NCBI GenBank assembly: GCA_026396675.1
Contig: JAPLWI010000011.1
Coordinates: 1 to 59,472 of the forward strand
DNA length: 59,472 bases
Direction of reading: 5' to 3'
Origin: Candidatus Kaiserbacteria bacterium
GTDB taxonomy: Bacteria; Patescibacteriota; Minisyncoccia; Phycocordibacterales; Phycocordibacteraceae
This document shows positions 1 through 59,472 of the stretch, one piece after another (the stretch's first letter is position 1; every line of letters begins with the position of its first letter). Position numbers and translations under genes: made by a program. A model generated the notes under the pieces. The model saw nothing but the letters and a program-made list of their open reading frames with translations. It did no database searches and had not been told where the DNA came from.

Positions 1-426
1 GATGGCACGCTGGTCGTAAACTACTACGGTCTTATCGCCCCGATGATTCGTTCGATTCAAGAATTAGACGCCAACATGAAGCAATTGCAGGCCGCTGGGG
101 CGATTCTTAGCGTAGAAGCGGGTACCGATGCGCAATGTGTTGTGGGGGATACGAAATTGCGGAGAAGAAGGAAAGGAAAAGGAAACACACAAAGCGACGG
201 CAACGTCGGCATCGAATACGAAGAAATCGCGATTGCCGATGTTGCGGTTGGTGATGAAATTGCCTCGCTCGACGAGCGCACCGGTCGGGTCGTGTACTCG
301 CGCGTGAACGCGCTCTTGGACATGGGTGTGCAAGAAATATTTGAACTCAAAACCGCCTCCGGTCGCACTATCAGAACCACTGGAAATCATCCGTACCTTG
401 TTCGGGAAAGGGCGACATTGTCCTAA
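1..426 (+). CDS. 3' end of a large fibre/surface-like protein gene (5'-partial) terminating in an N-terminal split-intein (Hint) half
   Basis: Frame 1 is open from base 1 (DGTLVVNYYGLIAPMIRSIQELDANMKQLQAAG..., coiled-coil fibre/chaperone-like). From Cys codon 136-138 it carries intein block A (CVVGDTKL) and block B (TGNHPYLV). It stops 7 codons after block B, with no endonuclease domain and no C-terminal splicing blocks. Confidence 0.8.
   Translation, partial: DGTLVVNYYGLIAPMIRSIQELDANMKQLQAAGAILSVEAGTDAQCVVGDTKLRRRRKGKGNTQSDGNVGIEYEEIAIADVAVGDEIASLDERTGRVVYSRVNALLDMGVQEIFELKTASGRTIRTTGNHPYLVRERATLS
136..423 (+). other. Split-intein N fragment (IntN, about 96 aa)
   Basis: Cys1 followed by VVGDTKL (block A) and TGNHPYLV (block B, TxxH). 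The ORF ends where endonuclease domains are normally inserted. Confidence 0.75.
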
Positions 427-444
427 AACCTTATGCCGATTTTC

Positions 445-474
445 TTTACACTTGTCAAAAAAGATAGCATAAAA
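445..474 (+). promoter_or_regulatory. Candidate sigma70-type promoter for the intervening cassette
   Basis: TTTACA (445-450), 17-nt spacer, CATAAA, in the 150-nt gap before the NYN gene. Sequence match only. Confidence 0.3.
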
Positions 475-575
475 ATAGGTGATTTTATATCACAGATGCT
501 TATGGCAACTCCGAAAAACACCGAAACTCGTGAGATTTCCGGCACGGTTATTCGTGATATAGAAGCGAAAATTGT

Positions 576-1208
576 ATGAAAAAGCCCCGAGTCGGTGTAT
601 TTATTGATGCAGGGAATCTGTATCACACATCTGCTAGAATCGGATGGCGCATTGATTTCAGAAAATTGAGAAACTTGTTGTCTCATACTTGTGACCTATC
701 TTTCATTAACTACCATATTATTGTTCCGCGTGAGGATGATGTGAATTATGCAAAAACGCTCACACACATACAAAAGGCCTCCGCGGCATTTACGGTGTGT
801 CAAAAGCAGATGAAGTATATCTGGAGTGATGAAGAGAAAAGAGAGATAAAAAAAGGAGATATTGATGTTGATCTTGCGGTGGATGTCATAGAAAGGTTTG
901 AGAATGTGGACGCTATGATTGTCGTGAGCGGTGACAGTGATTATCTCGCGCTTGAAAAGTATGTAGCTGAGCGCGGGAAGCCCCTCATATTTATGGGTTA
1001 CAAAAAGAATATGGCGTGGGAACTCCGTCTTAAAAACCATATGTTTTTTGAATTGATTAGAGAGTGGGTAGAATACGGAATAACAACAAACCCCGACCTT
1101 TCGGCCGGGGCGACGTTAACAGGGTCAATTATAGCAAAGGCTATTTCTGAGTCAAGCATTTTGCCGGCGGGTGTGGATAACGATATCTCAGGCAGAAAAA
1201 GGATATGA
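576..1208 (+). CDS. NYN/LabA-like (PIN-fold) RNase-domain protein
   Basis: MKKPRVGVFIDAGNLY..., DIDVDLAVDVIE, MIVVSGDSDYLALEKYV: the acidic-residue pattern of NYN/LabA-like domains. Confidence 0.75.
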   Translation: MKKPRVGVFIDAGNLYHTSARIGWRIDFRKLRNLLSHTCDLSFINYHIIVPREDDVNYAKTLTHIQKASAAFTVCQKQMKYIWSDEEKREIKKGDIDVDLAVDVIERFENVDAMIVVSGDSDYLALEKYVAERGKPLIFMGYKKNMAWELRLKNHMFFELIREWVEYGITTNPDLSAGATLTGSIIAKAISESSILPAGVDNDISGRKRI

Positions 1209-1415
1209 AAAAATCTTCTGAACTTTCTGAACTGCAAACAAACAAATCCGACCTCGTTGCCGAGGCCGGATTGCTGGAAGCGCGCGTTCTTCCGAATAAA
1301 AATAAAAGTTGGCTCCAGCACGAAACTACATGGTTTCGCGCGATTGCGCGACGAAGCGGTTGTCAACCCGCGACGGCACTTGCTACAGAGTGCAAAGGAA
1401 TCATAGCATAATACT

Positions 1416-1862
1416 ATGGAAAAGAACTTTGACGGATGGAATGAGGTGAAAAAAATAACGCACACAGAGCATCCGCGCCTGTATACGGTTCGCGAGATAT
1501 GGTGGTGCAGACTTGGCGTGAATGTTGGTACAGAACAAGATGGGAAAGGAGAATGGTCTGTCCGGCCTTGTATTATTCTGCGAGGATTTGGTTCCGATGC
1601 TTGTTTGGTTGTGCCGCTCACGACATCAACTCGCGAACACCCGCTACGTGTCACTGTCGGTTTGGTTGAAGGACAAGAAGCGAGAGCCAACCTATCTCAA
1701 ATTCGTGTTGTAGATACTCGTCGTTTGGAGGAAAAGATCGGATTTCTTGAAACGAAAGCGTTTTCAAAATTACGAAAAGCCGCCAGAGATTTGTTCTCTG
1801 GCGGCTTTTCTGACTCTCTCCCCCTTGCGGGGGCAAGGCCGAAGCCAACTGTCCAAATATGA
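1416..1862 (+). CDS. PemK/MazF-family toxin-like endoribonuclease
   Basis: FDGWNEVKK...REIWWCRLGVNVGTEQDGKGEWSVRPCIILRGF...LVVPLTTS...ANLSQIRVVDTRRL matches the MazF/PemK SH3-like barrel signature. The 3' end of the ORF reads through a terminator-like hairpin (1779-1812). Confidence 0.75.
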   Translation: MEKNFDGWNEVKKITHTEHPRLYTVREIWWCRLGVNVGTEQDGKGEWSVRPCIILRGFGSDACLVVPLTTSTREHPLRVTVGLVEGQEARANLSQIRVVDTRRLEEKIGFLETKAFSKLRKAARDLFSGGFSDSLPLAGARPKPTVQI

Positions 1863-1865
1863 TAT

Positions 1866-3164
1866 ATGACCACAACTGAAAAGTCAATGAAGAAAAAGGG
1901 AGTTGTTGATAACTTATTGAAGAGGTTTTTCGGCGCCCCCGTGCCTGATGTTGTCTTTGCGCCTGCGGCAATTCCTGCGACTAAAGCGACGATGACGACA
2001 AAAACCGTATGTCCGTACTGCAATTCGAGTAATTTTGTCAGGCGCGGCATTCGACAGAAGAAGCACGAAGTCGTGCAACTTTATTTGTGCCGGAATTCGG
2101 AATGCGGTCGAACTTTCACAGCCGAAAGAGTGAAAGGAAAAAGATTCCCTCTACAAGTCATTCTGGAAGGCATCAGTTATTACAACTTGGGATTAACGCT
2201 GGAACAAACTTGTCATATCTTAAAAGAAAAATTCTCAAAAGATGAAAATATTTTAGCACCGACGCCAGCTACGCTGGCGTCGTGGGTGGAAGAATATAAG
2301 CCGATTTGCAGGTTTGAACGAATGCGCCCGTACGCCGTCAAATTATTTCCGCCGCAGAAGATGATCGAAGTGGTTACGATGGCGCACCGCCAACTTTATC
2401 GATTCCGATACCATCGTGCAAAAACGCTGTTGTCAATGGAAGAATTTAAAAATCGTCGTTTCGGTCGTCTGAAAGAATATTTGGATAATGTTTCTGCGGA
2501 GACACCGCATCAATATTTTCAAGACGGAGAGCGGATGAGCGAGATCAGGAGCAAATTCGACAAAACCGATATGATTATCAAAAGTAAATCAAATTTCGCC
2601 AACAAAACCGCCGAGTTCGTCTTGCGGAGCGTGCCGGATAATAACGCGCGGCATGAGGCGTTGCAACGCTTCATGATTGCAAACGACTCGGTGACGATAG
2701 CGACCGAGGTGCCGGTGTATATTCGGAAAGAAGATGTGGAGCATATGGAGAATGTGCTGAAGTTCAAAATCTTAGGTGAAGAGGGGCTACTGATTAAGGG
2801 ACATGCAGACAAAGCTAAGTCAAAATCGGCAGCGGGAAGCAAATCGTTTCCAAAACTCTTAACCGGTCACATTGACATTCTGCAAATCCGCAACGGTATG
2901 GTGCACATTCTTGACTACAAACCGAACGCGAGCAAGGAGAAGCCGATTGAACAGCTTACATGGTACGCGCTTGCGCTTTCGCGCCTGACCGGTCTGCGTT
3001 TGTTCGAATTCAAATGCGCGTGGTTTGACGACAAGGATTTCTACGAGTTCTATCCGCTGCATGTCGTTAAAAAATTGCAGATAAAAAAACGCGCGCGGAA
3101 AGTGCATTACAGAGACGGCAGTGTAGCGGAAATTCCGCGCCAGGACGTGTTTAAAGTCGCATAA
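1866..3164 (+). CDS. Zn-ribbon + HTH + RecB/Cas4-type PD-(D/E)XK nuclease (candidate free-standing homing endonuclease)
   Basis: The N-terminus has CPYCNSSNF...CRNSECGRTF (a four-Cys ribbon, IS1 InsA-like), followed by a putative HTH (ISYYNLGLTLEQTCHILKEKF). The C-terminus has GHIDIL ... ILDYKPN ... EQLTWYALAL, i.e. the D, D-x-K and QxxxY nuclease motifs. Confidence 0.65.
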   Translation: MTTTEKSMKKKGVVDNLLKRFFGAPVPDVVFAPAAIPATKATMTTKTVCPYCNSSNFVRRGIRQKKHEVVQLYLCRNSECGRTFTAERVKGKRFPLQVILEGISYYNLGLTLEQTCHILKEKFSKDENILAPTPATLASWVEEYKPICRFERMRPYAVKLFPPQKMIEVVTMAHRQLYRFRYHRAKTLLSMEEFKNRRFGRLKEYLDNVSAETPHQYFQDGERMSEIRSKFDKTDMIIKSKSNFANKTAEFVLRSVPDNNARHEALQRFMIANDSVTIATEVPVYIRKEDVEHMENVLKFKILGEEGLLIKGHADKAKSKSAAGSKSFPKLLTGHIDILQIRNGMVHILDYKPNASKEKPIEQLTWYALALSRLTGLRLFEFKCAWFDDKDFYEFYPLHVVKKLQIKKRARKVHYRDGSVAEIPRQDVFKVA

Positions 3165-3171
3165 ATAAAAT

Positions 3172-3651
3172 ATGCAAAACTACGCGCAATCAAAATATAA
3201 ATATCAGACCAACAAGGCGTTTACGCCGAGGAAGCCGGTCAAGACCTTCCGCGACCTGGACATTTATCAGCAGGCGATGAACTGTGCAGTCATTGTCGTG
3301 AAGAATATCCGGCCGAAATTGGTAACGCTCAAATACCCGTTTTTGGAAGGGCTAATGGACTGCACGATGACGGTGCCGCTTTCTATCGGCGAAGCACACT
3401 CTATCCGTTTCGGCGATTTCGCGAAGGGACTCGGTTTGATGGAAAAAGCAATGTCGGGGTGCAACAAGATGATTATCTATCTGGAACATATTAAAGGTAT
3501 GTACGGAGCAAAGGTTGATGCCGGTGTAATTGATGAGATTATCGCACGTTATGCCGAGACGCGGACCAAGGCATTTCATTTGGAATGTTCGTGGAAGAAA
3601 TGGGGGACCGCGCCGCGTGAGCGCGGCGCGTTGGGCGCAGTCAAGCTATAA
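3172..3651 (+). CDS. Four-helix-bundle protein (23S rRNA intervening-sequence protein family type)
   Basis: FRDLDIYQQAMNCAVIVVKNIRPK...FLEGLMDC...SIGEA resembles the characteristic F.DL.vyq.A opening and helical pattern of this family. Confidence 0.6.
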   Translation: MQNYAQSKYKYQTNKAFTPRKPVKTFRDLDIYQQAMNCAVIVVKNIRPKLVTLKYPFLEGLMDCTMTVPLSIGEAHSIRFGDFAKGLGLMEKAMSGCNKMIIYLEHIKGMYGAKVDAGVIDEIIARYAETRTKAFHLECSWKKWGTAPRERGALGAVKL

Positions 3652-3665
3652 TCATATATAAATGT

Positions 3666-3881
3666 ATGTTTCCATTTTTTAACAAAACAAAAGACGTTAA
3701 GGGGAAGTGGCGCAAAATTTCCGATTTGACACCTGGACTTGAAATCGCTGTTCCTTCCGAGAACGGAAATGTTGCTTGGGATGAAATAACTTCCATAAAA
3801 CCAGTTGGCCGCGAGCAGGTTTACGATATTGAGGTAGAGGGAACACACAACTTCGTCGGCGACGATATTTTTGCGCATAAC
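3666..3881 (+). other. Split-intein C fragment (IntC, about 72 aa; +1 Thr codon 3882-3884)
   Basis: Block F is VYDIEVEGTHNFV. Block G is IFAHN followed by Thr. Confidence 0.75.
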
Positions 3882-4973
3882 ACCTATGTCTTGAAGTCGG
3901 GCAATCTGTCGGCTAATGCTCCTTCCGATGTTTTGAATGCCGATGACAAGAGTGTTGATATTTATAAACTTGCAACTTACGCGCTGTCAGAAGAACAATC
4001 GCTTGCGGCTAAAGTGGATGCGGAGCAGACGGAAATGGTCTCGCTCGAAGCGCGCGTGGAAGCGCTGGAAACAGGATCCGTGTCATCCGGTGGCAACTTC
4101 GGCACGGGGACGCTCGGCACGGGGTTGGCGAACGCCTTGAACGGCTTCGGCGTATTAATACAAAAGGGCATCGCGCAATTTAATACGCTCGTATTCCAAC
4201 GGCTCGTCGCGGCGACTGATTCCACAGGTGCTTCCTCAGCTGGTTCTGTCAGCATCTTGACGGGAAATGTGGTTGCGCAGGTCACCAATTCATTGGTAAT
4301 GCCGTCCACGAAGGTCTTCATCACATTCAATTCGCAAATTACCGGAAGCTGGTGGGTGAGCGACAAAGCTACTGGCTCGTTCCGCGTTGTCCTCTCGACA
4401 CCGCAGGCCAGCGATGTCTCATTTGATTACTTTTTGGTTCAAACGGAAGGTCAAATTTCAACGAGTACGGCGGCTGTCAGCGATCAACAAACAAACAATA
4501 ATTCTTCCGTTACAACGGCACCGATTATTGTAGAAAACTCGAGTGCCGAAACATCCGATACAACGGCAACAACTACTGCGACTTCAACGCCGGAATCTTC
4601 AGACACCACTCCGCCGGTCGTGACACTCATTGGCGAGGCGGCGATACAGATAAATGTTGGTGGCACATTCACTGACCCCGGCGCAACTGCGACTGACCCA
4701 GTCGACGGTGATGTGACCTCGAAGATTGTGGTGACCGGTTCGGTCAATACGGCAACGCCCGGACTTTACACACTCACCTATTCAGCTTCGAATGCGGCAG
4801 GGAATACAGGCACCGTGTCGCGCGTTGTCACAGTCCTCGCACCTGCTGAAACTCCAGCCCCAGCCGATGGTTCGACAAACTCACCACCTGACGATACAAC
4901 CGCGCCGACTGAACCAGCAGCACCTGCTCCTGAAACACCCACCACTCCCGCTGTAGAAACACCAGTGGGTTGA
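3666..4973 (+). CDS. Split-intein C half fused to the C-extein of the fibre/surface protein (coiled coil, Thr/Ser-rich linker, Ig-like DUF5011-type module, Pro/Thr tail)
   Basis: It starts with ...GREQVYDIEVEGTHNFVGDDIFAHN|T (intein blocks F and G, with +1 Thr). The extein follows with LEARVEALETGS coiled coil and TPPVVTLIGEAAIQINVGGTFTDPGATATDPVDGDVT...YTLTYSASNAAGN (Ig-like). Confidence 0.8.
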   Translation: MFPFFNKTKDVKGKWRKISDLTPGLEIAVPSENGNVAWDEITSIKPVGREQVYDIEVEGTHNFVGDDIFAHNTYVLKSGNLSANAPSDVLNADDKSVDIYKLATYALSEEQSLAAKVDAEQTEMVSLEARVEALETGSVSSGGNFGTGTLGTGLANALNGFGVLIQKGIAQFNTLVFQRLVAATDSTGASSAGSVSILTGNVVAQVTNSLVMPSTKVFITFNSQITGSWWVSDKATGSFRVVLSTPQASDVSFDYFLVQTEGQISTSTAAVSDQQTNNNSSVTTAPIIVENSSAETSDTTATTTATSTPESSDTTPPVVTLIGEAAIQINVGGTFTDPGATATDPVDGDVTSKIVVTGSVNTATPGLYTLTYSASNAAGNTGTVSRVVTVLAPAETPAPADGSTNSPPDDTTAPTEPAAPAPETPTTPAVETPVG

Positions 4974-4976
4974 ATC

Positions 4977-5063
4977 GTGTCCAACATGTCCAACACCGAG
5001 TGTCCGACAATGCCCGACACATTGTAAACAACATGTCCAACACTCGGTGTTGGACATGTTTGG
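4977..5063. repeat. REP doublet downstream of the RAYT gene
   Basis: A perfect hairpin ACATGTCCAACAC-TCG-GTGTTGGACATGT lies at 5031-5059. A degenerate inverted unit GTCCAACACCGAGTGTCCGAC lies at 4988-5008. Confidence 0.85.
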
Positions 5064-5071
5064 GCGGCAAC

Positions 5072-5731
5072 TTAAAGTTCTAAAACCTCACCGAGTGTTT
5101 TGGCAATACTCGTTCGCACAAACATTTCATATTCGCTTGCCGTTTTGAATTGCCCCAAGACCACTTCCGTGGAAAGTAACTTATCCCAACGACTTTTATC
5201 GATGTAGTCCTGGTAACTAGACCACTCGTATTTTTGTTCATTACTTTTCCATTGTTGCAAACCTCTTACATTGCGATGAATGTAAGTCGAGAGGTAAAGC
5301 AATTGATCGTCGTCTTCTATATGAATAGCTCTATATGGTCCTTGAAATAAGTGTCCGGACACTCTGTATCTCGTGTTGTAATACTTTGTATAACCATTTA
5401 AAACGCGTTGCATATATCGTGCGATGCCATTTTCTTGAGTTTCTTTAAGAATAAGATGAAAATGATTCGGCATGAGACAGAACGCGGTAAGTTCCACATA
5501 CCGATTCTTAATGATTTTCGTAACATCCTCCGCACCAATGTCGAACACTCGGTGTTGGACAAAACGACGCACACGGCGGGAAATTTGATCAAAAACAATA
5601 TCGGATTGGAAAAATAAAATTAAAAAGAGGAATCGAGAATAATCCGAGGTATCATGAAAAATAATTTTCTTCTGTGTACCGCGATTGTACACGTGATAAT
5701 ACTCACCAATGCTTATTTGAACATTTCGCAT
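5072..5731 (-). CDS. REP-associated tyrosine transposase (RAYT; IS200/IS605-type Y1 HUH transposase)
   Basis: YHVYNRGTQKKIIF N-terminus, HUH motif PNHFHLIL and catalytic Tyr motif STYIHRN. The gene is flanked on both sides by REP hairpins. Confidence 0.85.
   Translation of the reverse strand: MRNVQISIGEYYHVYNRGTQKKIIFHDTSDYSRFLFLILFFQSDIVFDQISRRVRRFVQHRVFDIGAEDVTKIIKNRYVELTAFCLMPNHFHLILKETQENGIARYMQRVLNGYTKYYNTRYRVSGHLFQGPYRAIHIEDDDQLLYLSTYIHRNVRGLQQWKSNEQKYEWSSYQDYIDKSRWDKLLSTEVVLGQFKTASEYEMFVRTSIAKTLGEVLEL
5538..5563. repeat. REP unit inside the RAYT coding sequence
   Basis: ATGTCGAACACTCGGTGTTGGACAA, translated on the minus strand as ...FVQHRVFDIG... Confidence 0.8.
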
Positions 5732-5763
5732 ACAGTTTCATTGTCGCAGAAATACGGGCATTT

Positions 5764-5790
5764 TGTCCAACACTCGGTGTTGGACATGTT
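5764..5790. repeat. REP unit between the RAYT start and gap
   Basis: TGTCCAACACTCGGTGTTGGACATGTT, with 9-bp arms and a TCG loop. Confidence 0.85.
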
Positions 5791-5831
5791 TTGGAAGTTG
5801 CAGATATTGCATGTGTGCTACACTTTTATTT

Positions 5832-6896
5832 ATGAAAAACATTCGCATTGCCATTAATGGTTTCGGGAGGATAGGTAGAGCATTTGCGCGCCGCGCGCAA
5901 AATCGTGGTGTTGAAATTGTCGCAATAAACGATCTCGGCTCGCTGGAAAATCTCGCGTATCTGCTTAAGTACGATACTGTGTATGGGCGGTTCCCCTCAG
6001 AAGTTTCAACGAAGGAGGGCGCGTTTCTTATAGATAACAAAGAGGTGAAATTCTTTTCGGAAAAAGATCCAGCGAAATTACCGTGGAAGGACTTAGACAT
6101 TGATGTCGTCGTAGAATCAACTGGACTTTTTACCGATTATGAAAAGGCGAGCGTGCACATTACTGCTGGCGCAAAACGTGTCGTAATTACCGCACCGGTC
6201 AAGGTTCCGCCAGTCGACGGAGGTGGTGCGACAGTGCTAATGGGTTTGAATGAGGAGAAGCTCGCGTCGTGTCAGATTTCGTCAAACGCTTCCTGCACTA
6301 CCAACGCCGCAGGTCCAATTATCGCGATCTTGGATGAGGTGATTGGTATAGAAAAAGCAATACTTTCCACAACGCATGCGTACACAGCAAGTCAGTCAAT
6401 TGTAGATGGGCCATCAAAAAAAGATATGAAAGAGGGAAGATCCGCGGCGCAAAATATTGTGCCGACTTCAACTGGTGCGGCAACGGCAGTCACGGCAGCA
6501 TACGAATCGCTCGCCGGAAAATTTGATGGCATCTCGCTTCGCGTTCCGGTAGTTGTTGGGTCAATCGCGGACATTACTTTCATCGCGAAGCGACCAACAA
6601 CTGTTGAGGAAGTAAATGGGGCGTTACGCGGCGCCGCAGTGGCGCCGCGCTGGACAGGCATTTTCAAAACGACTGACGAAGAACTCGTATCAAGCGACGT
6701 CATCGGTGAACCATACGCTTCAATTGCCGATCTCGGAATGACTCGCGTTGTTGATGGGAATCTCGTGAAAGTACTTGCTTGGTATGATAACGAGATGGGG
6801 TATGCGGAGTCGCTAGTTCGGCATGTGATTGCCGCGTCCGCGGCAATCATGCCGAATCCGTCAGCGGATTTGGCGCAAGCCGCCGCGAAAGCATGA
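5832..6896 (+). CDS. gap: Glyceraldehyde-3-phosphate dehydrogenase, type I
   Basis: MKNIRIAINGFGRIGR..., SNASCTTN active site and WYDNEMGY. The start is set at ATG 5832, because the ORF-track start at 5763 runs through the REP. Confidence 0.95.
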   Translation: MKNIRIAINGFGRIGRAFARRAQNRGVEIVAINDLGSLENLAYLLKYDTVYGRFPSEVSTKEGAFLIDNKEVKFFSEKDPAKLPWKDLDIDVVVESTGLFTDYEKASVHITAGAKRVVITAPVKVPPVDGGGATVLMGLNEEKLASCQISSNASCTTNAAGPIIAILDEVIGIEKAILSTTHAYTASQSIVDGPSKKDMKEGRSAAQNIVPTSTGAATAVTAAYESLAGKFDGISLRVPVVVGSIADITFIAKRPTTVEEVNGALRGAAVAPRWTGIFKTTDEELVSSDVIGEPYASIADLGMTRVVDGNLVKVLAWYDNEMGYAESLVRHVIAASAAIMPNPSADLAQAAAKA

Positions 6897-44477: not shown

Positions 44478-44754
44478 ATAACCGTGAGCAAGGACTCCAT
44501 TTGCTCATTGTTTACACGAGGTTGAACCTCGTGCACCTCATGCATAAATCCTTATCCACACTTGCGCGGAATAGGGTCTTTATGGTATCTTCAAAAGTAT
44601 AGATTTGAGTGAGTAATGAAGGGCTGGAGCGAAATTGATTAATACGGGAACTACATAAAAACGCAAAAGCGAGGCGAATCCGTGTGCGTTTGTATTTATA
44701 TATTTTACTGTTAGAGAAAAATCTTAATTATTTACCACTTCACGCCACCACCAC

Positions 44755-58926: not shown

Positions 58927-59283
58927 TTAGTATCCTCCGCGACCGTAGCCGCCACGACCATAACCGCCTGCATCGCCACCTCCAAAGCCGCCTTCGCGGC
59001 GAGGAGGGCGATCACCCTGCGGTCGGGCGAAAGAGACCGAGAGCGTGCGCCCATCCATCTCCTTACCGTCCCAACGATCGATTGCCGCTTGCGCCTCCGC
59101 TTCGGAAGCCATTTCGACGAAGCCGAAGCCGCGTGAGCGGCCCGTCATACGATCAGAAATAATACTCGCGGACACGACATTACAGACCTCGCTAAAGGTC
59201 TTTTTAAGATCGTCTTCCGTCGAGCGATAGGGGATACCGCCCACGTAGAGCTTGTTCCCCTGTACTGATGCTGCATTGTCCAT
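58927..59283 (-). CDS. Glycine-rich RNA-binding protein (single RRM)
   Basis: KLYVGGIPY (RNP2), RGFGFVEM (RNP1) and a C-terminal GGFGGGDAGGYGRGGYGRGGY. The start is set at MDNAAS (ATG 59283-59281). Confidence 0.88.
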   Translation of the reverse strand: MDNAASVQGNKLYVGGIPYRSTEDDLKKTFSEVCNVVSASIISDRMTGRSRGFGFVEMASEAEAQAAIDRWDGKEMDGRTLSVSFARPQGDRPPRREGGFGGGDAGGYGRGGYGRGGY

Positions 59284-59472
59284 GTATTGGATATAACTGA
59301 TTAACCTCGCCGAAACTGAACACTTGCGGCTCGCCTTCGCCAGCTGGCGAACGGCTAAACCGAGCGAAGCTCGAATACTCTGCGAGTAAAAACAGTATGA
59401 CAGAAATGCCAAAAAAATGCAAGGGAGTGTGGATAACTTTAATGAGTGCCAGAAAAAAGAGCTGGGAAGAAC

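Follow-up and report, generated by a model that had tools for sequence, protein, structure and literature searches.

Introduction

In type I toxin-antitoxin (TA) systems such as par/Fst-RNA II of pAD1 and txpA/RatA and bsrG/SR4 of B. subtilis, the toxin and a small RNA are encoded by convergent genes that have overlapping 3' ends and a bidirectional terminator in common, and there is no protein antitoxin. A small hydrophobic toxin is typical of type I systems, although it is not universal: SymE/SymR and RalR/RalA are type I systems with nuclease toxins, with SymR overlapping the 5' end of symE and SymE having an AbrB/MazE-like fold. MazF is among the best-studied toxin families and, to our knowledge, every characterised MazF is controlled by a protein antitoxin. 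Here, we analysed a 59,472-nt stretch of a Candidatus Kaiserbacteria bacterium genome (GenBank assembly GCA_026396675.1, contig JAPLWI010000011.1, positions 1 to 59,472; hereafter the window), in which a MazF-like toxin gene is found together with genes for an NYN RNase, a nuclease, and a four-helix-bundle (4HB) protein. All four are located in a 3.2-kb insert that is bounded by the end of the N-terminal half of a split intein (IntN, ending at 426) and the start of its C-terminal half (IntC, starting at 3666). With a probability of roughly 60%, we interpret this insert as a stack of selfish modules instead of a five-gene operon, with the RNase toxins having type I-like RNA antitoxins and being carried on a homing-type nuclease element.

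Split inteins with free-standing endonucleases have been described as fractured genes (2009, PMC2677866), while the S23-family proteins that the 4HB protein resembles are typically encoded inside insertion elements, including the rRNA insertions of the Candidate Phyla Radiation (CPR) (PMC11270868). Our search of an incomplete literature collection retrieved no account of RNA antitoxins for MazF or NYN RNases, of the nuclease/4HB pair, or of inteins located in surface proteins of Patescibacteria.

Results

A predicted convergent small-RNA gene at the 3' end of the MazF-like toxin gene

The MazF/PemK-like endoribonuclease open reading frame (ORF; 1416..1862, + strand) is composed of a core of aa 1-127 (1416-1796) followed by a 21-aa tail (1797-1859), which is the reverse complement of a candidate antisense RNA gene. 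The protein matches PemK PF02452 over aa 26-126 with 49.7 bits (cutoff 23.1, E 4.7e-13) as well as a MazF-like PHROG (9.6e-12). In the alignment, R25 and T48 of B. subtilis EndoA/YdcE, which we take to be the catalytic residues, correspond to an Arg (VRP) and a Thr (PLTTS) that are both conserved in 23 of 23 homologues inspected. An earlier, first-pass annotation made from the sequence alone had named the loss of catalytic residues as a reason for doubt, and both are intact. The gene also encodes a 25-aa N-terminal extension (DFDxWNxxKK) and has its own extended -10 only a few bases 5' of the ATG, leaving an extremely short leader. We found 723 relatives in two length classes of 127 and ~148 aa, and a nucleotide alignment revealed that the stop codon is decided by a 2-nt difference in a hairpin loop, which places the stop in the 3' arm in frame or not. 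Past codon ~118, the 3' end of the gene is conserved in sequence whether it is translated or not. The first-pass annotation had recognised no protein antitoxin for this gene and the comparison bears this out: the 160 nt 5' of 41 close homologues are unrelated and contain no conserved ORF, and there is no MazE/PemI-type gene up- or downstream in any of these 41 loci.

The conserved companion of the toxin gene is instead a candidate antisense small RNA of ~87 nt (1765..1853, - strand; covariance model 97.3 bits), which runs antisense to the final ~12 codons of the toxin core. The predicted RNA reads 5' ACAG-UUGGC-UUCG-GCC (hairpin 1, hp1), CCCCCG-CAAG-GGGG (hairpin 2, hp2), a 16-bp terminator hairpin (1810..1774), and a U tract. 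Its putative promoter (1859..1912, - strand; 10/12 in the promoter scan) includes a -10 TATCAT at 1864..1859, a -35 TTGACT at 1887..1882, and a TTATCAACA box at 1912..1904, and overlaps the initial codons of the long nuclease ORF. Across homologues, the conserved order on the minus strand is a TTATCCACA-like box, TTGAC(T/A), 17 nt, TAT(A/C)(A/C)T, ~7 nt, and ACAGUUGGC-UUCG-GCC, followed by another hairpin, whose loop is of the GNRA type, and then by a terminator hairpin of 12-16 bp with a U tract after it. The promoter and the three hairpins are present in 64 unique loci, including those of MazF genes only 28-49% identical to that of the window, in which the hairpin sequences differ while the pairing is kept. 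The covariance model has a single match in the 59-kb window (1765-1853, - strand) and ~70 matches elsewhere, all of them antisense at MazF 3' ends. The first-pass annotation had noticed a terminator-like stem in the toxin ORF and the fact that the ORF runs through it; both observations stand, whereas the 10-bp size given for the stem was too small, as it is a perfect 16-bp inverted repeat (1774-1789/1795-1810). What had been overlooked is that this hairpin is the predicted terminator of a convergent small-RNA gene. Computationally, the locus has the arrangement of type I systems, namely a cis antisense RNA gene with its own promoter (1887..1859) and a terminator shared with the toxin gene (1810..1774).

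Covariation and strand bias both point to a structured minus-strand RNA. RNAalifold analysis of 34 close sequences identified 23 pairs, 13 of which have compensatory changes, and 0 of 500 column shuffles reached the observed values in any of five measures. When the pairing partners were slid, only 44-66% of cells paired vs 96% in the real structure. The alignment contains 94 G-U cells, with 96% of cells paired when read on the minus strand and 86% on the plus strand, and the UUCG and GCAA (GNRA) loops read properly on the minus strand only. The terminator hairpin folds at -47.4 kcal/mol (z = -6.8 against shuffles) on the minus strand vs -44.1 kcal/mol on the plus strand. Column identity, which we computed across 37 loci, is 0.11-0.31 5' of the ATG and 0.57-0.77 in the coding sequence (CDS; 0.41 at codon position 3), compared with 0.88 in hp1/hp2, 0.79 in the -35, 0.67 in the -10, 0.34 in the promoter spacer, and 0.12 beyond 1916; hp1/hp2 are therefore the most conserved part of the locus. 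Given the drop of identity at both ends, the homologous unit extends over ~1406-1912 and consists of the toxin gene plus the RNA gene.

Searches of the whole window against Rfam at gathering thresholds, and of 1-5200 at E up to 5, returned no known family, only chance miRNA-like matches on the palindromic hairpin. A match of CRISPR-DR57 at 1813-1849 was rejected, as it scored 22.5 bits vs a gathering score of 39, corresponds to hp2 of the antisense RNA, and is not part of a repeat array. A scan of genome contigs with the 15-mer AGGCCGAAGCCAACT yielded chance matches from unrelated phyla, and the loci concerned (L058-L177) were disregarded.

Several related loci contain variations on the MazF+RNA unit. 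Tandem arrays of two to four units, some interleaved with NYN+RNA units, are found in L041 (1-3900), L207, and L212 and resemble cassette arrays; the two MazF copies of L041 have equal alignment scores to the window toxin and are 595 nt apart. In the subclade of L052, L053, L213, and L214, MazF is fused to an N-terminal domain of ~80 aa (MSTNNYIQIKETYPETYDVSERDYESEGEIQ...), which could be a fused protein regulator, and the antisense RNA is kept. A 9.77-Mb contig of Bradyrhizobium elkanii (L235, 3001-3435) encodes a MazF 77% identical to the CPR clade with its RNA unit (96.5 bits) and an adjoining IS3-family transposase. This copy indicates that the 0.5-kb MazF+RNA module has moved between phyla.

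The NYN RNase gene has an analogous predicted antisense unit

The NYN (PIN-like) RNase ORF (576..1208, + strand) has its domain at aa 5-157 (588-1046), while its tail (1047-1208) overlaps a second convergent antisense unit. The domain matches PF01936 with 70 bits (cutoff 24.2, E 4e-19) over profile positions 1-141 of 145 and the PADLOC NYN model at 1.5e-8; homologues are 177-209 aa in length. The antisense unit (1079..1180, - strand) starts with a TTATCCACA box at 1180..1172, followed by a -35 TTGACT at 1155..1150 and a TG-extended -10 TATAAT at 1133..1128. In the promoter scan, this arrangement (TTGACT-16-TGcTATAAT) has 11/12 matches, and a minus-strand terminator was called as well. The short RNA predicted from it would contain a hairpin (1111..1090) with a GAAA loop and then a U-rich tract. 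The hairpin, which the first-pass annotation had missed in the tail of the NYN ORF (1090-1111), folds at -21.4 kcal/mol (z -4.3) on the minus strand vs -12.7 kcal/mol (z -2.0) on the plus strand. The unit is kept in L002, L041, L186, and L187, and NYN genes as distant as 24-33% identity are followed by analogous units of promoter, hairpin, and U tract (range overall 24-89%).

Upstream of both antisense promoters is the TTATCCACA box, which equals the DnaA-box consensus. In the window, it occurs 1-20 nt 5' of a -35 at 1172-1180 (-), 1904-1912 (-), 44552-44560 (+), and 59428-59436 (-), the last of which precedes the promoter of an RRM-type (RNA recognition motif) RNA-binding protein gene at 59280 (minus strand). 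The box is also found before -35 hexamers in most related loci. A reading as DnaA boxes was dismissed, as its 15 copies in the window, vs 11 expected, are no enrichment and it is likewise placed 5' of ordinary -35 hexamers. The box may serve as an upstream promoter element specific to this lineage, or as the site of a regulator. Since it is also found at ordinary promoters, the antisense promoters are likely to be real in this lineage.

The 68-codon ORF overlies a third structured element

The first-pass annotation had considered the 68-codon ORF upstream of the toxin gene (1205-1411) to be in the position of an antitoxin gene, while allowing that its DNA might be non-coding. It is the non-coding option that the comparison favours. 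The DNA is a conserved structured RNA-type element (1232..1408, - strand), in which an extended -10 (TGCTATGAT, 1408..1400) is followed by a ~110-nt core, a terminator-like hairpin (1272..1245), and UUUGUUUGUUUG. The hairpin at 1245-1272 had been noticed previously and is genuine, having 12 pairs with one G-U on the minus strand. In eight aligned DNA copies, the ~110-nt core has its G-U pairs on the minus strand, minus-strand TGCTATAAT is conserved, and a terminal GC-rich hairpin is present in every copy even though its sequence is non-homologous, with a U-rich tract following on the minus strand. When 1.84 billion representative proteins were searched, there were 13 matches, among which the true relatives embed the segment at varying offsets in ORFs of 70-314 aa. 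Its contexts vary as well, since it is found after PemK, after NYN, before Bro-N, and beside a minus-strand RelE-type pair, and it is missing from nearly all MazF loci. In the window, L002, and L006, the ORF is uninterrupted and begins with the conserved ATGAAAAAATC. Neither the element nor its ORF matched any Rfam or protein family, and a pattern scan for further copies found only the two already known. As a single sequence, the element folds no more stably than its shuffles (z -0.9), so that its support consists of conservation and covariation.

On the comparative evidence, the most plausible reading of the element is a third RNA gene on the minus strand, ~155 nt in length, and not a MazF antitoxin, because almost all MazF loci are without it. 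An antitoxin protein is also contradicted by the varying contexts and offsets and by the element's own minus-strand TGnTATAAT promoter and terminator. The sequence AAGTTGGCTCCAGC is present in the element at 1309-1322 (+), such that its minus-strand RNA would be complementary over 8-10 nt to AGUUGGCU, the invariant 5' end of the MazF RNA (1838-1851, - strand). This complementarity may be due to chance or may reflect an RNA-RNA contact.

Conserved non-coding elements underlie the apparent tight packing of the insert

The window begins inside a gene (ORF 43-426), after which the plus strand contains ORFs 502-579, 576-1208, 1205-1411, 1416-1862, 1866-3164, 3172-3651, and 3666-4973. Consecutive ORFs overlap by ATGA at 576-579 and 1205-1208 and are otherwise separated by 4, 3, 7, and 14 nt. 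The coordinates, overlaps, gaps, and shared direction that the first-pass annotation gave are all exact, and so are its domain names (NYN, E 4e-19; PemK/MazF, E 4.7e-13; and a nuclease with a Zn ribbon plus PD-(D/E)XK according to Pfam/NCBIfam). However, the tight packing of these ORFs is largely an illusion, since both small ORFs and several ORF ends overlie conserved non-coding elements: the final 21 codons of the toxin ORF, ~50 codons at the end of the NYN ORF, the first 42 of the nuclease ORF, and the small ORFs themselves.

The left end of the cassette is a non-coding leader of ~150 nt (427..575) located after the IntN stop, which we defined by nucleotide alignment of 13 loci. In the window, it contains an inverted ATATCACA at 487-494 and the direct copies CGTGAGAT at 529-536 and CGTGATAT at 553-560, while across loci one inverted ATATCACG is accompanied by direct copies of CGTGAKAT, two or three in number. 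The 25-codon ORF 502-579, which had been pointed out as an unannotated ORF, matches no protein family and lies inside this conserved leader, and its ATG is not conserved in the 13-locus alignment, which speaks against a coding role. The first gene 3' of the leader varies by locus (NYN, MazF, Bro-N, or nuclease), and the motif cluster is also found 5' of cassettes in intein-free loci. In L007, L009, L014, L020, L022, L025, L026, L029, L031, and L036, the CGTGA(G/T)AT copies of the leader are kept by sequence and not by compensation. As such, they resemble binding sites of a DNA-binding protein, perhaps the Zn-ribbon/HTH (helix-turn-helix) domain of the nuclease. The right end of the cassette is the 4HB stop codon, as similarity between cassettes ends immediately after it.

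An invariant nuclease-4HB core with variable accessory modules

We compared 38 genome loci encoding a relative of the nuclease with all proteins of the window. The 4HB gene follows the nuclease gene in 36 of the 36 loci with downstream sequence. MazF-like genes are present in ~11 of the 38 loci and NYN genes in ~4, located before, between, or after the core pair, and these accessory proteins are only 27-74% identical to the window copies. The first-pass annotation had regarded recurrence of the gene quartet elsewhere as a test of its view, and NYN, MazF, nuclease, and 4HB do recur together: in window order in L002 and L232 and in other orders in L014, L224, and L227. Given this recurrence, the gene set of the window is not a chance co-location. 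The complete order in L002 is IntN, NYN, 68-codon element, MazF, nuclease, 4HB, and IntC, yet its MazF is only 27% identical to that of the window; such a distant MazF within the same scaffold amounts to a module replacement. The closest protein relatives are all from metagenome-assembled genomes of Patescibacteria/CPR (Paceibacterota, Kaiserbacteria, and others). In other cassettes, the accessory slot contains type II pairs, such as a RelE-like toxin with an upstream antitoxin (L006, 405-879, - strand) and HicB-HicA (L036, 5397-5898).

These distributions also bear on the suggestion of the first-pass annotation that the NYN or 4HB protein might be the partner of MazF, which we reject. The 4HB gene tracks the nuclease in all 36 loci, and most MazF homologues are found without NYN, nuclease, or 4HB. 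Among 19 genome loci found via the toxin, one has an NYN gene closely similar to that of the window and a second has a distant, partial NYN match, while none has the nuclease or 4HB.

The nuclease (1992..3164, + strand) combines an IS1-type Zn ribbon (NCBIfam IS1_IS1595_Zn, 30 bits, cutoff 28), an HTH, and a RecB-like PD-(D/E)XK domain (Pfam PDDEXK_1, PF12705). The latter scores 20.7 bits against a cutoff of 22, and several homologues carry precomputed PF12705 matches. D295, D308-x-K310, and Q321xxxY325 are invariant in 31 nuclease sequences. The AlphaFold2 (AF2) model (predicted local distance difference test score, pLDDT, 75) has the nuclease domains of AddA, RecB, and Cas4 as its best Foldseek matches, with weak E values of 0.015-0.2. 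The 3531 relatives are variously annotated as "transposase-like" or "PD-(D/E)XK". The reading frame extends back to 1866, but alignments with homologues begin only at ~aa 38-49 and codons 1-16 overlap the antisense-RNA promoter, which places the real start probably at ATG 1992. No match was obtained to the GIY-YIG, HNH, LAGLIDADG, Vsr-like/EDxHD, or I-Ssp6803I-like homing-endonuclease families. Identity as Cas4 was rejected, as the four-cysteine Fe-S motif is missing and C342 is the only cysteine beyond residue 110 that is invariant.

The obligate downstream partner of the nuclease, the 4HB protein (3172..3651, + strand; 159 aa), appears to be a divergent relative of the 23S-rRNA-IVS (intervening sequence; S23)/Avd family. 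The window protein itself has no Pfam or NCBIfam match, while among 29 relatives PF05635 matches weakly in 8 (best E 3.3e-4) and TIGR02436 in 4. Its AF2 model (pLDDT 81) consists of four long helices, and Foldseek ranks 1-6 are 2RLD and 2GSC with TM(target) 0.77-0.86, a root-mean-square deviation of 2.0-2.7, and an E of only ~0.01; the Avd of a diversity-generating retroelement ranks 22. PDB sequence searches with the 4HB and nuclease profiles returned nothing useful. The predicted up-down bundle can be superposed on solved members of that family.

The cassette interrupts a split intein in a giant surface-protein gene

IntN (136..426, + strand; Pfam/NCBIfam intein_Nterm, Hint) starts with Cys1 at 136-138, contains the block B TTGNHP, and terminates the N-extein gene with a stop at 424-426. 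IntC (3666..3884, + strand; Pfam Intein_splicing, NCBIfam intein_Cterm) contains blocks F/G and ends with ...FAHN at 3876-3881 and the +1 Thr at 3882-3884; its end reads …VYDIEVEGTHNFVGDDIFAHN|T and is followed by a C-extein with an Ig-like domain (Bact_surface_Ig-like) up to 4973. The splicing residues of both halves are thus present (Cys1, TxxH, HN, and the +1 Thr). Both halves are found on the same strand in the same locus with a free-standing nuclease gene between them, as in fractured genes, and the view of the first-pass annotation that these genes sit on a homing-type element is upheld insofar as this element lies within a split intein. The gene terminated by IntN encodes a giant surface protein with a Peptidase_S74-type C-terminus; according to gene neighbourhoods in the protein collection and the host genes of L224/L227, such host proteins are 2400-4400 aa in length with a Peptidase_S74 domain. 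In a jackhmmer profile search, 14 of the 38 nuclease loci had IntN/IntC halves flanking the cassette, and intein-free homologues align straight over the extein junction. In loci without the intein, the cassette directly follows the Pro/Thr-rich C-terminus of giant surface-protein genes.

Further split inteins in the same genomes contain other inserts, consisting of an NYN gene alone (L024, 1022-2314) or of only ~270 nt (L033, 9165-9974, - strand). Such varied inserts suggest that small selfish modules in general use the gap of these split inteins as a landing site. Immediately 3' of the C-extein stop of the window (4980-5795), a RAYT gene (REP-associated tyrosine transposase, IS200-like Y1; ORF 5072-5731, minus strand) is flanked by four palindromic repeats of ~27 nt (TGTCCAACACTCGGTGTTGGACA) at 4983-5010, 5034-5060, 5538-5561, and 5764-5790.

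Discussion

In our interpretation, the leader, the DNA-binding nuclease, and its 4HB partner would form the core of the insert, acting as the mobility/maintenance machinery that fractured the intein, and the host protein would be restored by trans-splicing of IntN and IntC. The MazF-like and NYN genes would hitch-hike on this core as addiction-type modules, with a separate promoter for each and, in convergent orientation, a small-RNA gene that has its terminator hairpin within the 3' end of the RNase gene. We infer that both small RNAs are transcribed and serve as antitoxins to toxic RNases. Most likely, each RNA would pair with the toxin mRNA across the shared bidirectional terminator and cause its decay or block its translation, in the manner of 3'-overlapping type I systems. 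The 68-codon ORF would be a third minus-strand structured RNA gene, and the 25-codon ORF part of the leader. More tentatively, and at slightly less than even odds, we propose that MazF/NYN RNases of the CPR neutralised by convergent structured RNAs, acting as antisense and/or by protein binding, are a widespread, horizontally mobile TA class that combines a type II toxin fold with an RNA antitoxin. These would be collected together with classical TA pairs by a nuclease/4HB element, which would be a new homing-endonuclease family with an obligate cofactor that fractures inteins in non-essential giant surface-protein genes.

Several results weigh against this interpretation. Three metatranscriptomes of the same samples contained no contig on 400-3700, the locus-bearing runs being DNA; a search for RNA runs of L181 found none, and the runs X19/X20, which were found with the RNA sequence, yielded only related DNA-like contigs. 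Most homologues are of the 127-aa form, in which nothing but the terminator hairpin extends into the toxin CDS, such that hp1/hp2 are complementary to the toxin mRNA only if it reads through the terminator. In addition, the 5' part of the RNA has no complementarity to the toxin 5' region beyond that of shuffles (mean z +0.58; par-like model). A pure antisense action therefore leaves the conservation of hp1/hp2 unexplained. With respect to the core, the structural matches of the nuclease are weak (E 0.015 or worse), there are no terminal inverted repeats, the leader motif repeats were not found at the right end of the cassette, and the nuclease-4HB cassette is also found directly after the stop codons of intein-free giant genes. 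Given the intein-free placement and the lack of terminal inverted repeats, the element may move by homing or in another way. The nuclease-4HB pair could also itself be a toxin/immunity pair.

Together, the unexplained conservation of hp1/hp2 and the lack of 5' complementarity make it a serious alternative, albeit one that we consider unlikely, that the RNA antitoxin acts on the MazF protein in a type III-like manner. In this case, hp1/hp2 with the ACA before them would serve as a pseudo-substrate in the RNA-binding groove of the dimer, and the convergent position would matter only for co-inheritance. This would fit with hp1/hp2 being the most conserved part of the locus (0.88) while residing outside of the CDS in most homologues, with the RNA having no complementarity to the toxin 5' region, with a sequence of hp1 that is fixed even though its helix tolerates change (4/5 pairs of helix 1 never vary), and with divergent MazF subfamilies each having their own RNA variants. 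On the other hand, the known type III layout of tandem, same-strand, upstream repeats processed by the toxin is missing here, and the shared terminator provides perfect complementarity over ~40 nt, a length that suffices in known type I systems with 3' overlap. It is somewhat less probable still that the RNases are anti-phage/anti-competitor effectors of abortive infection, or regulators of the element, with the convergent RNAs being silencers or insulators against read-through. NYN does match a defence-associated PADLOC model, MazF-like proteins are among phage "moron" families, the modules gather beside giant surface-protein genes, which is typical of variable regions, and L041, L207, and L212 contain arrays of several MazF+RNA units. 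However, the same accessory slot houses classical type II pairs (HicAB, RelE-like) and MazF+RNA travels as a self-contained 0.5-kb unit into another phylum, and a role in defence would be compatible with the RNA as antitoxin in any case.

We regard it as improbable that the 3' element belongs to the toxin transcript or the DNA in cis, either as a terminator plus 3' untranslated region stability structure or as a recombination/target site. In favour of this reading, its hairpin is symmetric and bidirectional with a nearly equal plus-strand fold (-44.1 vs -47.4 kcal/mol), it is placed at the border of the homologous unit, and no transcript was seen in the three same-sample metatranscriptomes. 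The -35 TTGAC and the -10 TAT..T speak against it, as they are kept only in antisense orientation and at the right distance to the first hairpin in 64 loci, while the 17-nt spacer between them is unconserved. So do the 94 G-U cells and the pairing of 96% on the minus vs 86% on the plus strand, the UUCG and GNRA loops that are correct on the minus strand only, and the same promoter logic at unrelated NYN genes with unrelated hairpins. Lastly, a neighbouring protein (the 68-codon ORF, NYN, or 4HB) has only a very slight chance of being the antitoxin. For such a protein, one could cite ORF 1205-1411, which is open in the window, L002, and L006 with its conserved ATGAAAAAATC start, or the 4HB protein, which is small, helical, and of antitoxin-like size. 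Nevertheless, the DNA of the 68-codon ORF is found in varied contexts with ORF bounds of 70-314 aa, is missing from nearly all MazF loci, and has a covarying structure with its own minus-strand promoter; 4HB tracks the nuclease and not MazF; and the 19 toxin-found loci include NYN in two (one of them distant and partial) and nuclease/4HB in none. Two other readings, as integron attC or polymorphic-toxin cassettes, were discarded: no attC-like R'/R'' core is present, each RNase is a complete cytoplasmic protein that has a promoter of its own and no fusion to the giant protein, and IntC has canonical splicing residues.

If RNases with type I-like RNA antitoxins on a homing-type element are indeed what the insert contains, a large MazF clade with a strictly co-inherited, covarying antisense RNA and no protein partner would blur the boundaries between type I, II, and III systems, and MazF+RNA would be a simple, portable 0.5-kb module. 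For the orphan PemK/MazF and NYN genes of Patescibacteria with odd C-terminal tails, the tails and the small ORFs would represent read-through of unannotated RNA genes. The nuclease/4HB pair would provide the functionally uncharacterised 23S-rRNA-IVS family with a genomic role as the partner of a selfish nuclease, while the "fractured gene" route to split inteins would be widened from phage replication genes to cellular surface proteins. For organisms that are not culturable, the analysis also provides a motif upstream of promoters that is specific to the lineage, TTATCCACA, along with three candidate new RNA families, and the Bradyrhizobium elkanii copy is located in a cultivable alphaproteobacterium, which makes it an experimentally tractable host.

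Among described TA systems, the window units resemble type I systems with 3' overlap, in that convergent toxin and small-RNA genes share a terminator, the RNA has a predicted strong promoter, and there is no protein antitoxin. They differ in having a soluble RNase of 127/148 aa with a MazF fold (or an NYN RNase) as the toxin instead of a small (<60 aa) hydrophobic membrane peptide, and also in that the best-conserved part of the RNA is outside of the overlap and no 5' complementarity was found. With SymE/SymR and RalR/RalA, they share a nuclease-type toxin under the proposed control not of a protein but of a small RNA encoded in cis or nearby, whereas the promoter-hairpin architecture of the window units is absent from those systems and the fold here is that of MazF. 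Like MazEF/PemIK, the toxin has a PemK/MazF domain with the conserved catalytic Arg and Thr; unlike MazEF/PemIK, it has no MazE/PemI-type neighbour in 41 close loci, has its own extended -10, and includes the 25-aa N-terminal extension. ToxIN (type III) is comparable in the MazF/Kid-like toxin fold and in having a structured RNA as the candidate inhibitor, but there are no tandem direct repeats in 1-6000 and the RNA is encoded downstream on the opposite strand.

The core of the insert has its own counterparts. The predicted fold of 4HB is nearest to 2RLD and 2GSC and its relatives weakly match PF05635/TIGR02436, as for S23/Avd proteins; in contrast to these, the window protein is below the family thresholds, is longer (159 aa, with an N-terminal extension), and is tied to a PD-(D/E)XK nuclease and not to a reverse transcriptase or an rRNA insertion. 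Compared with the fractured genes of PMC2677866, the host here is a giant Patescibacteria surface protein and not a phage DNA-metabolism enzyme. Likewise, the nuclease is RecB-like PD-(D/E)XK with an IS1-type Zn ribbon/HTH, whereas the nucleases there are GIY-YIG, HNH, or Vsr-like, and the insert here adds an obligate four-helix-bundle partner and up to three further modules. Both have in common co-oriented IntN and IntC in one locus, a free-standing nuclease gene at the point of endonuclease insertion, an insert with its own control elements, including structured or hairpin sequence 5' of the inserted gene, and related nuclease genes that also exist without flanking inteins.

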